A stretch of 64,000 bases of DNA from an uncultured Prevotellaceae bacterium (GCA_902762565.1 CACWOS010000020.1:25235-89234), one strand, 5' to 3'; counted from the first letter of the stretch, positions 3,089 through 49,751 are shown. Made by a program: numbers and translations. The notes: generated from the sequence alone by a model not told the origin.

Positions 3089-3136
3089 AGAGGCCGAAGG
3101 CTTCAAGCTAGCAGGGCGAAGGAAGCAAACGTATTG

Positions 3137-3240
3137 TCCGAAGGAAGCAGAAGGGTCACGCGAAGGAAGCGGACGCCTCTTCCGCTACGTGCGGACGGGG
3201 CGCGAGAAGGAAGCGGAAGGGCCGAGAGCCCGTAGCGGGC
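3137..3240. repeat. GC-rich structured repeat module, copy 1 (GGAAGCGGA-type units)
   Basis: Starts tccgaaggaagc..., like copy 2 at 42272. It carries repeated gaaggaagcgga units and a ccgc-N5-gcgg core. It is far more GC-rich than its surroundings and has no credible coding frame. Confidence 0.75.
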
Positions 3241-3245
3241 AATCC

Positions 3246-3491
3246 CTGATTTGGGTTGACTGCTGACAACAACACCTCCCCTCCTCCCTTCGCATGGTTT
3301 GAATGCCGATTCAGAAAGGGATTGGAGCACGGGAGGTGTCGTTCTAACTCCTCCCTTTCACCTCTGAAGTGTATGACGGGAGGTGTCAATGAGGTGTCTC
3401 AGTACCACCTCCCGTGCTCCAATCCCTTTGCCTATCGGCATTTGAGACTCTTATAGGGATATGGGAAGTCTTGTTAGTCAACCCAGATCAG
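3246..3491. repeat. 246-bp imperfect foldback; miniature (cargo-less) copy of the TIR element at 42397-44003
   Basis: Outer inverted repeat: ctgatttgggttgact (3246-3261) with agtcaacccagatcag (3476-3491), 15/16. Inner arms: 3302-3338 with 3406-3442, a 37-bp inverted repeat with a 4-nt internal mismatch. 3273-3468 is collinear with both ends of the 42.4-44.0 kb element. Confidence 0.8.
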
Positions 3492-3560
3492 GAAACGTCA
3501 GACTTGTATTATTCTGGTTATCTACTTGCAAAAGTATTTGGTGATATAGATTTTAATGCG

Positions 3561-42195: not shown

Positions 42196-42271
42196 CCTAT
42201 CTTTCTTAAATCCACAAGGAAATATATCAAAATGTACTCTTCCCTATAAAAGATGACAATAGAATTGATAT

Positions 42272-42376
42272 TCCGAAGGAAGCGGACGGGTCGCGAGGAG
42301 GAAGCGGACGGGTCGCGAGGAGGAAGCGGAAGGGCCGTCCGCACGTAGCGGAAAGGGCCTCCGCTTCCTTCGGAAG
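42272..42376. repeat. GC-rich structured repeat module, copy 2
   Basis: A 22-bp unit (gaagcggacgggtcgcgaggag) is perfectly duplicated at 42279-42300 and 42301-42322. A 14-bp perfect stem joins ccgaaggaagcgga (42273-42286) to tccgcttccttcgg (42360-42373). Confidence 0.8.
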
Positions 42377-42596
42377 GGGTGCGCAAAGTAAGCAAGCACC
42401 TCCCCTCCTCCCTTCGTATAGTTTGAATGCCGATTTAGAAAGGGATTGAAGCACGGGAGGTGTCGTTCCAACTCCTCCTTTTCACCTCCGAAGTAACCCT
42501 GAAGTGACCCTCTGAAAAGTTGGACGATTAATGCTAATTTTACAAATTTTAAGAGATATTTCTGGGTCAAAATATTGCAGGCCGCAATATATTTCG

Positions 42597-42604
42597 TACC
42601 TTTG
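42597..42604 (+). promoter_or_regulatory. -7 promoter box TAccTTTG internal to the element, for the VapE-like gene
   Basis: Consensus match 84 nt upstream of the ATG at 42688. Confidence 0.5.
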
Positions 42605-42687
42605 CATCGGCATTCATGAGTGGGTGCTATAGGCTATGAAGAACACATGCCTATAAACCGAATTATTAATTAAAGATCTTAAAAAGA

Positions 42688-43902
42688 ATGAGTAAAAATC
42701 TAACTGTAAACGGCGAGGCTATGAACGCTTCGCTGGAAGGGATGCTCGCTGTCGAGCTGTTTCTGAACGACAAGTACCTGTTCCGTCGCAACGTGCTGAA
42801 CGGTAAGGTAGAATTTTCGAAAAAGCCAACTGAGGCCAATGAACCCGTCTGGCGTCCGCTGACGGAGCAAGCACTGAACAGTATCGTCCTTGAGGCGATG
42901 CGCGCGGACATCTGCGAGGGAAAGAATCCAAAGTCGGACATCCAGACGATTATCAATTCTGATGATGTGCCGACGTTCGATCCCATCAAGACGTATCTCG
43001 ACAGCCTGCCCCAATGGGATGGACAGAACCATGTGGCTCAGCTGTTTGGCCGTATTCCTGGCATCAGTTCTGAGCAACTCGCGTACCTTAGTATATGGTT
43101 GCGCTCTTGTGTTGCTCATTGGCTGCAGATGGATACGCTTCACGGCAACGAATGCGTACCTACGCTGATTGGCGCTCAGGGGTGTGGCAAGACAACCTTC
43201 CTGCGTCGACTGCTGCCCACACATCTGCGCCAGTACTATCTGGACCACCTGAACCTGTCGAACAAGTTCGATAAGGAGATGGCACTGACAAACAATCTGC
43301 TTGTGAACCTCGATGAACTCGAGGCCATCCGCCGCAGTCAGCATGCGTCACTGAAGCAGTTGCTGTCGAAGAACAAAGTGAACGGACGTAAGATCTATGG
43401 CGATTCGCAGGACGACCGTCCGCGTTATGCGTCGTTTGTGGCAACCACCAACAACCGTCATCCGCTGACGGACGGCACAGGAAGTCGTCGCTACATCTGT
43501 CTGACGATTCCTGATGGTCAGCTCATCAACAACGATGGCGACATTGACTATGACCAGCTGTATGCGCAGGTGCTGTACGAACTGCAAGAGCTGAAAGCTC
43601 CGTATTGGTTTAACAACGACGAGGTGAAGCGTATTCAGGAGATGAACCAGGAGTTTATGGAGCAGAAGGATATGGCAGAAATCGTTACAGCCTGTTTCCG
43701 TAAGCCAAAGGATGGTGAGCAGGTGAAGACGATGAATGGCACTCAGATGATTAAGTTGATGCAGAAGGATTATCCTTCGCTGAAACTCGACCACAGCACC
43801 CGAATCCATTTGGGACAGGCTATGAAAGACCTAGGCTACGAGCATACGGAGCATAGCCATGTAGCCTTCTACAAGGTCGTTCCAAAAGTCAAAGCAGCTT
43901 GA
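42688..43902 (+). CDS. VapE/VirE-family P-loop NTPase (DUF3874-type; D5/SF3-helicase-like)
   Basis: Walker A (LIGAQGCGKTTFLRRL), Walker B (LLVNLDELE) and the sensor-like FVATTN; 404 aa. It has the architecture common to Bacteroidales virulence-protein-E / DUF3874 genes. Confidence 0.75.
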   Translation: MSKNLTVNGEAMNASLEGMLAVELFLNDKYLFRRNVLNGKVEFSKKPTEANEPVWRPLTEQALNSIVLEAMRADICEGKNPKSDIQTIINSDDVPTFDPIKTYLDSLPQWDGQNHVAQLFGRIPGISSEQLAYLSIWLRSCVAHWLQMDTLHGNECVPTLIGAQGCGKTTFLRRLLPTHLRQYYLDHLNLSNKFDKEMALTNNLLVNLDELEAIRRSQHASLKQLLSKNKVNGRKIYGDSQDDRPRYASFVATTNNRHPLTDGTGSRRYICLTIPDGQLINNDGDIDYDQLYAQVLYELQELKAPYWFNNDEVKRIQEMNQEFMEQKDMAEIVTACFRKPKDGEQVKTMNGTQMIKLMQKDYPSLKLDHSTRIHLGQAMKDLGYEHTEHSHVAFYKVVPKVKAA

Positions 43903-44010
43903 GCAGTAACGGGAGGTGTCGATGAGGTGTCTCAGCAGCACCTCCCGTGCTTCAATCCCTTTGCCTGTCGGCATTTGAGCCTCTTAAAGGGATATGGGAG
44001 GTGTATGTCA

Positions 44011-44051
44011 AAAAACAAGCGATGTGCCCGTGAGCTACATCGCTTGTTTTT
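44011..44051. terminator. Bidirectional terminator-like hairpin
   Basis: aaaaacaagcgatgt (44011-44025) pairs with acatcgcttgttttt (44037-44051). Confidence 0.7.
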
Positions 44052-44053
44052 GT

Positions 44054-44073
44054 TAATACTCATCCTCGTTGAA
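44054..44073. repeat. att-like 20-mer, copy A (taatactcatcctcgttgaa)
   Basis: Identical to copy B and 19/20 to copy C. Its reverse complement reads FNEDEY-stop. Confidence 0.9.
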
Positions 44074-44642: not shown

Positions 44643-44970
44643 CAGTATTTTTTCTTATCTACCCCTTTTTACGTGAAGTCTTAGACTTTTTTAGCGATTA
44701 TACACGCACGAACCTTCAATTATAGATAATGGAATCCGTGAAGCCTGCCGTGCGTGTGGATAGTGGTCTCATATAATTACTGAATAATCACTTTTAAGCT
44801 AAAAAAGTGGCACATGTGCCAACTTTTCAGTGCAAAACGTACAAACGAACCGTTCTGCATACCAGGAATCCCATTTGGGCATTGACTTAAGCACACAGAA
44901 AGACGGCCCGAGGCATCCAATCGTCTACCTCAGGCCGTCTGAAAGCGCAAAGTTGAGTTAAATCGCGAAC

Positions 44971-44990
44971 TAATACTCATCCTCGTTGAA
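44971..44990. repeat. att-like 20-mer, copy B
   Basis: taatactcatcctcgttgaa, preceded on the left by hairpins at 44901-44940 and 44803-44827. Confidence 0.9.
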
Positions 44991-49521: not shown

Positions 49522-49529
49522 CCTAATTG

Positions 49530-49751
49530 TTAGTACTCATCCTCGTTGAATAGGAAGTCTTCTTTTGTGGGATAGTCGGGCCAAATCTCCTCGATACTCT
49601 CGTAGATATCGCCCTCGTCTTCAATCTCCTGTAAATTCTCCAGCACCTCGAGGGGAGCGCCAGAGCGGATTGCGTAATCTATCAGTTCGTCCTTGGTTGC
49701 GGGCCAGGGAGCATCTTCCAATTTTGAAGCTAATTCTAGTGTCCAATACAT
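49530..49751 (-). CDS. DUF2795 domain-containing protein
   Basis: MYWTLELASKLEDAPWPATKDELIDYAIRSGAPLEVLENLQEIEDE... The start is set at 49751 because the -7 box at 49785-49792 lies inside the longer ORF-track call. Confidence 0.75.
   Translation of the reverse strand: MYWTLELASKLEDAPWPATKDELIDYAIRSGAPLEVLENLQEIEDEGDIYESIEEIWPDYPTKEDFLFNEDEY
49531..49550. repeat. att-like 20-mer, copy C (the functional 3' end of the DUF2795 gene)
   Basis: tagtactcatcctcgttgaa, which is FNEDEY plus the last two bases of the TAA stop (49530-49532) on the minus strand. Confidence 0.9.

Follow-up and report, generated by a model that had tools for sequence, protein, structure and literature searches.

The Rep proteins of SaPIs are self-loading helicases in which a C-terminal winged helix recognizes iterons of 5–6 nt, six to twelve of which directly follow rep, where they flank an AT-rich center in opposite directions (PMC9371898). 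The locus described here belongs to an uncultured Prevotellaceae bacterium and lies in the window, a 64,000-nucleotide stretch of DNA (GCA_902762565.1, CACWOS010000020.1:25235-89234); its best structural and sequence match is to the Rep-ori modules of SaPIs and PICIs (PDB 7PDS and 8TCH). The likeness comprises a helicase with a C-terminal winged-helix reader, pairs of reader and repeat that are specific to a lineage, and short repeats in both orientations directly after the helicase gene, an arrangement that the right unit of the Prevotella locus fits. Judged by sequence and predicted fold, the module is like a SaPI Rep-ori in the features that were compared but differs in three main respects: (i) it is not part of an island, since it occurs by itself among housekeeping genes, with none for a primase, an integrase, or packaging; (ii) it has a second, mirror-image field upstream of the gene, whereas SaPIs have one iteron field with an AT-rich middle; and (iii) it has gene-less derivatives, doublets that are scattered in the Prevotella chromosome. 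The Prevotella motifs are also longer (~8–11 nt), and each unit has a conserved center.

Three other systems share parts of this organization. The alpha protein of the satellite phage P4 is a primase-helicase with a C-terminal winged helix that binds octamer repeats in two separate cis sites, ori and crr. The combination of a helicase with a winged helix and two repeat sites in cis is common to P4 and the Prevotella module, but alpha also includes a primase domain, the two P4 sites do not bracket the gene as mirror images, and P4 itself is an entire satellite genome. In REPIN-RAYT systems a single gene lies between inverted repeat copies, gene-less inverted doublets are dispersed, and each gene lineage has its own repeat type, the RAYT being an HUH/Y1 transposase. 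Here the likeness is one of layout only; the Prevotella protein is a helicase without a nuclease domain, and the copy numbers are low (~5 loci per type in this genome). TIR transposons and MITEs resemble the Prevotella element in their inverted ends, their internally deleted gene-less derivatives, and their presence in several copies per genome, but the Prevotella element lacks a transposase, a target-site duplication, and conserved termini.

Structure of the Repeat Units

The window contains a large copy of the element, with a gene between its arms, and a small copy without one (Table 1). Reading of the sequence verified that the G and C at one pair of positions in the arms of the small copy are replaced by A and T in the large copy, and that this pair is the sole difference between the two copies within a 25-nt core. 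The window contains exactly four occurrences of the core, two in opposite orientation in each copy, as compared with an expectation of zero from shuffled sequences. Beyond it, the arms are imperfect inverted repeats of 63–64 nt with 75% complementarity, separated by 15 nt in the small copy and by 1422 nt in the large one. Folded as single-stranded DNA, the small copy reaches -50 kcal/mol (z = -7.45).

When the four arms are aligned, each read inward, they constitute whole homologous units of ~95–110 nt that extend beyond any 24-nt terminal repeat, and three solo units on other contigs of the same genome align with them over their full length. Each unit comprises, in order, a short motif (CACCTCCC or a close variant of it in the window) in two direct copies, a conserved center, a variable 9-nt linker, an inverted motif copy, and one to three further direct copies at a spacing of ~11 nt. 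The inverted copy and the next direct copy usually form a palindrome of 9–16 bp with a spacer of 5–7 nt; in the window's own units these palindromes are degenerate. A/T-rich sequence is present as a mini-palindrome in the center of each unit and as a stretch after the left unit, with no clear counterpart of the AT-rich unwinding region of SaPIs being defined, and a central stem around the conserved center is perfect in only a few loci. The site of the G/A difference is in the linker between the conserved center and the inverted motif copy, which varies more among members of the family than any other part of the core.

Table 1. Positions, in window coordinates, of the features of the two copies
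Feature	Position	Strand	Remarks
Left unit, large copy	42397..42489	+	Homologous over ~95–110 nt to the three other units of the window and to the units on contigs C42, C1, and C8
Two direct motif copies, large-copy left unit	42397-42412		
Inverted motif copy, large-copy left unit	42455-42462		
Degenerate direct motif copies, large-copy left unit	42472-42478, 42483-42489		
G/A site, large-copy left arm	42449	+	A here, G in the small copy; in the linker
Right unit, large copy	43911..44003	-	8 nt past the stop codon; same anatomy on the minus strand; G/A site at 43952 (T)
Left unit, gene-less small copy	3273..3365	+	G/A site at 3325 (G)
Right unit, gene-less small copy	3378..3470	-	G/A site at 3419 (C); outer homology to ~3495
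Helicase gene	42688..43902	+	404 aa; VapE-like SF3 helicase with C-terminal DUF3874 winged-helix domain
Bacteroidota-type -7 promoter box TAnnTTTG (putative promoter)	42597..42604	+	~108 nt downstream of the left unit; read directly
22-bp tandem repeat block with hairpins	42260..42372	.	Immediately left of the large-copy left unit
Matching 22-bp tandem block	3110-3238		Left of the small copy

The Enclosed Helicase

The helicase gene is the only gene that the large copy encloses, and no other ORF is present. The protein matches the VapE-like domain of Pfam (E = 8e-37), and the Walker A, Walker B, and sensor residues do not vary among 79 homologues. In the AlphaFold model, residues 329–400 have a winged-helix topology (pLDDT ~87), and the helicase core is of low confidence (residues 186–266). 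The top structural match found by Foldseek is SaPI1 Rep1 in a complex with dsDNA (7PDS, E = 3.6e-9, probability 1.0), with SaPIbov1 Rep, NrS-1, ASFV, and poxvirus D5-type helicases among the lower matches, and a sequence profile of the family matches 7pds_A among the PDB sequences (E = 2.4e-12). The Pfam, Foldseek, and profile matches and the conserved Walker and sensor residues place the protein among the self-loading SF3 (D5/VapE-like) helicases as a relative of SaPI Rep. The family is labeled as phage DNA helicase or primase in PHROGs; NCBIfam and PADLOC gave no meaningful family for the helicase, and domain searches gave no match to an HUH domain in the protein. The TAnnTTTG box ahead of the gene is a putative promoter, and a similar promoter-type box precedes the copy on contig C64.

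Related Modules in Prevotella

A scan with one genome per species gave 378 relatives of the helicase, the best 80 of which (64–81% identity) are nearly all from rumen Prevotella. Enough flanking sequence was available for 75 related loci, and 61 loci, counting that of the window, have the gene between mirrored units. In these 61 loci the left arm is 150–440 nt upstream of the start codon and the right arm begins 1–35 nt (in a few, up to 85 nt) past the stop codon, so that repeats in both orientations lie directly 3' of the helicase gene as they do in Rep-ori modules of the SaPI/PICI type. The two arms of a locus are 65–96% identical, and in most loci 65–85%. Most of 76 right units have a perfect motif palindrome of 9–16 bp with a spacer of 5–7 nt, followed by direct copies at a spacing of ~11 nt. 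The motifs vary widely among loci (CATATAAC, CCTACC, CCTCAC, CCTAAC, CTATTAAC, and CCCTCAC), and each locus has a single motif that is common to both arms and to direct and inverted copies alike. Several loci are orthologous in position across species. The modules are common in rumen Prevotella and apparently undescribed in the searchable literature, in which an article that mentions DUF3874 does not deal with them and a full-text search on Prevotella miniature inverted repeats with a helicase led to an article on repeats of the Porphyromonas gingivalis genome.

The genome of the window contains a second type of element with the motif CCCTCAC, represented by a copy on C64, gene-less doublets on C76 and C70, a center-deleted palindrome on C53, and a left unit at the end of contig C20. 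The C64 copy (C64:1480-2290) has an internally deleted helicase gene that has lost approximately residues 52–345, and it differs from C70 and C76, which are of the same type, in having a right arm that nearly exactly repeats the left in inverted form. These gene-less CCCTCAC derivatives indicate that the small copy of the window is one of a series.

No flanking mirrored arms were found at the five paralogues of the same genome that have 30–39% identity to the helicase. Three of these five distant VapE/DUF3874 paralogues (C11 ~61270, C32 ~46138, and C45 ~1536) have direct and inverted short repeats of their own right after the stop codon, so that a repeat field 3' of the gene may be a general feature of the protein family.

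Covariation of Motif and Wing Residues

The helicase is most variable in its C-terminal domain, the last 70 residues. Among pairs of loci compared at the same level of core identity, C-terminal identity is 0.61 where the two share a motif and 0.49–0.52 where they do not, and the identity of the N terminus does not differ between the two kinds of pair. A segment of 12 residues (385–396 in the numbering of the window protein), which forms the β-hairpin wing of the winged-helix domain in the AlphaFold model, has a sequence characteristic of each motif class. At position 391, 37 of the 40 loci with a ..TC.. motif have His and 17 of the 19 with ..TA.. have Asn, counts that take the loci as independent of ancestry; residue 390 (Ser, Gly, or Cys) also sorts by motif. 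The combinations of residue and motif recur in separate clades of a tree constructed from the helicase core only. The model and the behavior of residues 390 and 391 together point, computationally, to the C-terminal winged helix as the domain for repeat specificity. An alternative to recognition is that this domain and the right arm, beside which it is encoded, could travel together by recombination. With two wing residues that track two motif bases in dozens of lineages, the module combines a compact Rep-like helicase and putative binding sites with a readable recognition code, and it offers a testable case of how the specificities of initiator and site diversify.

A Putative Helicase-plus-Iteron Module

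We propose, with a probability of roughly 0.7, that the arms are mirror-image clusters of repeats that most likely serve as docking sites of the helicase, and that the element constitutes a stand-alone, origin-like module of Rep plus iterons from which gene-less derivatives have arisen. The anatomy of the units, their layout across the family, the covariation of motif and wing, the structural kinship with SaPI Rep, and the unmatched natural variants described below are observed; binding by the helicase and any activity as a replication origin are inferred. The C-terminal winged-helix domain would read the motif in the way that SaPI Rep reads the iterons just after rep, the gene and its arms would form a self-specific, origin-like module, and the small copy would be a derivative from which the gene was lost. 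Two processes may keep the arms alike: both must fit one reader domain, so that over long times the motif would change together in both, and the inverted arms may occasionally recombine or overwrite each other. Against an origin role stands the setting of the modules, alone among housekeeping genes and without genes for a primase, an integrase, or packaging, which makes a role as a chromosomal replicon hard to rationalize.

More tentatively, and as a possibility that we consider doubtful at present, the stand-alone modules may represent an undescribed selfish or chromosome-organizing element of rumen Prevotella, in which each lineage has its own code of reader and motif, the two mirrored origin-like fields recombine, and gene-less doublets are seeded at further sites between genes. 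If so, the helicase could still bind the gene-less doublets in trans, and the relationship would be a helicase-based counterpart of that between REPIN and RAYT. Palindromic repeats are scattered between the genes of these genomes, and the module may account for one class of them.

Analysis of the Mirrored Substitution

In the original prediction, the mirrored G/A change was taken either as a compensatory double substitution under selection for intramolecular pairing or as the result of copying one arm from the other, as in foldback or hairpin replication. The change is real in this genome, but it provides no evidence of compensation. The four units have 92 alignable columns, of which 57 are invariant, 20 are side-specific, 14 have other patterns, one is mirrored, and none is crossed. 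The small and large copies differ within these columns at seven sites in the left unit and nine in the right, and random placement of these changes gives an expectation of 0.24 mirrored sites and a probability of 0.22 for at least one. The 20 side-specific columns are found in both copies, indicating that the divergence of left from right units is older than the split between the copies and that arm-to-arm homogenization has not occurred since.

A comparison of 21 sister pairs of loci gave 125 mirrored, 126 side-specific, and 18 crossed sites. The excess of mirrored sites stems from distant pairs in which whole arms and motifs are different; the nine recently split, side-dominated pairs have nine mirrored versus 10 crossed sites, which represents the background of homoplasy. 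Mismatches between the arms of the 61 loci comprise 278 versus 310 transitions and 744 transversions (56%), with no asymmetry of the G·U type.

Additional copies were obtained by an exact-match scan of metagenome contigs, which found six with 95–98.7% identity to the window; in five of them collinearity extends across the flanks, and L179 matches over the element only. The large copies in L181 and L179 have G in both arms and are matched. The large copy in L180 (left G, right A) and the small copies in L176 and L178 (both left A, right G) are unmatched, and L177 covers only the right arm of a large copy (A), so that matching cannot be told. Differences between the arms that are not mirrored, which the original prediction had named as the sign of random divergence, are present therefore in three conspecific contigs, and together with the probability of 0.22 they leave its claim of compensation without support. 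L176 and L178 have two further unmatched core positions each; in these contigs only 94 nt separate the G/A sites, and assemblies from two samples agree in their state, whereas L180, with arms 1.5 kb apart, is possibly a chimeric assembly of two strains. When the two copies of the window are included, four arm pairs are matched and three unmatched, which is close to random association, and among the conspecific contigs the G/A polymorphism is present in all four arms. The covarying pairs with rare unpaired states that identify a stem maintained by compensatory change were not observed. The G/A site is, in this reading, a polymorphism in an unconstrained linker that segregates separately in each arm among close relatives, and its matched state in this genome results from chance or, as a by-product, from patch exchange between the arms, and not from compensation. 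There is no need to invoke foldback replication or a long-range stem across 1.5 kb.

Exchange between the Arms

The suggestion that one arm is copied from the other holds for the family at the scale of whole arms or patches, with no sign of the foldback or hairpin replication that was proposed with it. In the C64 copy the right arm is of the left type and is a near-exact inverted copy of the left arm, the arms of L080 are 96% identical, and those of several loci are 90–96% identical. A 4-nt patch beside the core is reciprocally swapped between the arms in L176:2795-3055 and L178:933-1193 relative to positions 3240-3500 of the window, a pattern for which two nested inversions, or else a double crossover involving both inverted arms, provide the best explanation. 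Arm copying looks like ordinary recombination between inverted repeats.

Copying between the arms by short-patch gene conversion, by reciprocal exchange or, in the small copy, by template switching might also have produced the matched G/A state without selection for pairing. We regard this as a plausible but uncertain origin, with the odds somewhat against it. The reciprocal patch swap and the C64 right arm are in its favor, as are the loci with 90–96% identical arms in a family in which recently split pairs keep their side-specific differences, and the same G/A polymorphism in all four arms of contigs that are 95–98.7% identical suggests an exchange of alleles. However, the arms of the window are not homogenized but retain 20–25 side-specific differences, some of them ≤10 nt from the core, so that any tract must have been very short; the close doublets on C70 and C76 have 21 side-specific sites and no mirrored ones; and two independent transitions at a variable linker site fit the data equally well.

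Mobility, Pairing, and RNA Elements as Alternatives

The 1.6-kb copy may alternatively be a DNA transposon with the arms as its TIRs, the small copy being a MITE-like derivative and the transposase acting in trans. The element has inverted ends, gene-less or internally deleted copies are present at other loci of the genome (C76, C70, C53, and C64) in addition to the small copy of the window, and doublets with other motifs are found upstream of rnhB in other species. A 1.8-kb block that comprises the element and the 22-bp tandem repeats is shared with L179, where homology to the window begins at position 42202 and the sequence to its left is different, which indicates that the 22-bp block travels with the element there. 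Such an origin is nevertheless unlikely because no transposase or integrase was found in or beside the element, 18 loci with well-defined arms have neither target-site duplications nor conserved termini, the arms are full iteron fields with a motif that tracks the wing of the helicase, and orthologous positions are retained from one species to another. The relatives in viral contigs and plasmid records were all of <36% identity. The modules have LUD, YqeY, aldolase, DnaK, L19, and glycoside hydrolases as neighbors, which are housekeeping genes and not the integrase, primase, and phage-interference genes of an inducible island.

Empty sites were sought at the positions of both copies. Near yqeY, 40 relatives have neither an arm nor a LUD or helicase gene, and synteny is not kept there. 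The region upstream of rnhB was searched in 120 genomes of the genus, from which 29 loci were fetched and read, and gave no precise empty site; in most of these 29 a putative aminotransferase-like gene abuts rnhB, which indicates that the site of the small copy has been rearranged.

Selection to keep left and right arms paired, in a DNA cruciform or foldback or in an RNA stem that closes the gene, with a truly compensatory change from G:C to A:T, is very improbable. The perfect complementarity of the 25-nt core in both copies of this genome and the strong single-stranded fold of the small copy are as it would predict. It is contradicted by the unmatched states in the conspecific contigs, at the G/A site and at the two further positions of L176 and L178, by the frequency with which a mirrored site is expected by chance, and by arms that in most loci are only 65–85% alike with a majority of transversions and no G·U asymmetry among their mismatches. 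In addition, the left unit is upstream of the promoter box, which makes a single transcript over both arms unlikely, and searches of Rfam yielded no family, with generic hairpin (miRNA-precursor) noise being the only result at gathering and permissive thresholds. Equally remote is a role of the right unit as an RNA element of the 3' UTR (a terminator or stability hairpin), and of the left unit likewise for the upstream gene, which would suit the position of the right unit just past the stop codon and its perfect stem with a 5–7-nt loop in nearly all loci but not the direct motif copies that follow the stem in place of a T-run, the covariation of the stem sequence with DNA-binding wing residues, the occurrence of the same unit upstream of the promoter and in gene-less pairs, or the lack of an Rfam match.

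Repeats and Genes Adjoining the Elements

In the genome of the window, a 22-bp block with GC-rich hairpins is immediately left of nearly every left unit (C1, C8, C42, C64, C70, C76, C53, and C20:104767-104903), and the tandem block is also present by itself on C29 and C2; none of the 80 related loci from other species (L017–L096) contains it. A dispersed repeat of ~80–127 nt is often upstream of the 22-bp block and occurs at >12 sites of the same genome.

Gene-less inverted doublets are directly upstream of rnhB in other species, with the motif CTATTAAC in L126 (genome G106) and CTCTTCACC in L141, L144, and L146 (genomes G107, G040, and G072), and the small copy of the window is likewise directly upstream of rnhB. 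L123 and L125 contain runs of three to five copies of a 7-nt repeat inside the aminotransferase-like coding sequence upstream of rnhB, and these runs resemble the heptamer arrays that are frequent in the window.

An att-like 24-mer of the neighboring integration hotspot is found at positions 44050-44073, 44967-44990, and 49527-49550 of the window, the first beginning 47 nt after the right unit, and in L179 (3270-3300) the element adjoins the same 24-mer without the yqeY segment. Two groups of loci, which comprise ~16 of the 80, have a DUF6078 gene shortly after the element (for example, L068:3846-4289 and L042:3800-4279).
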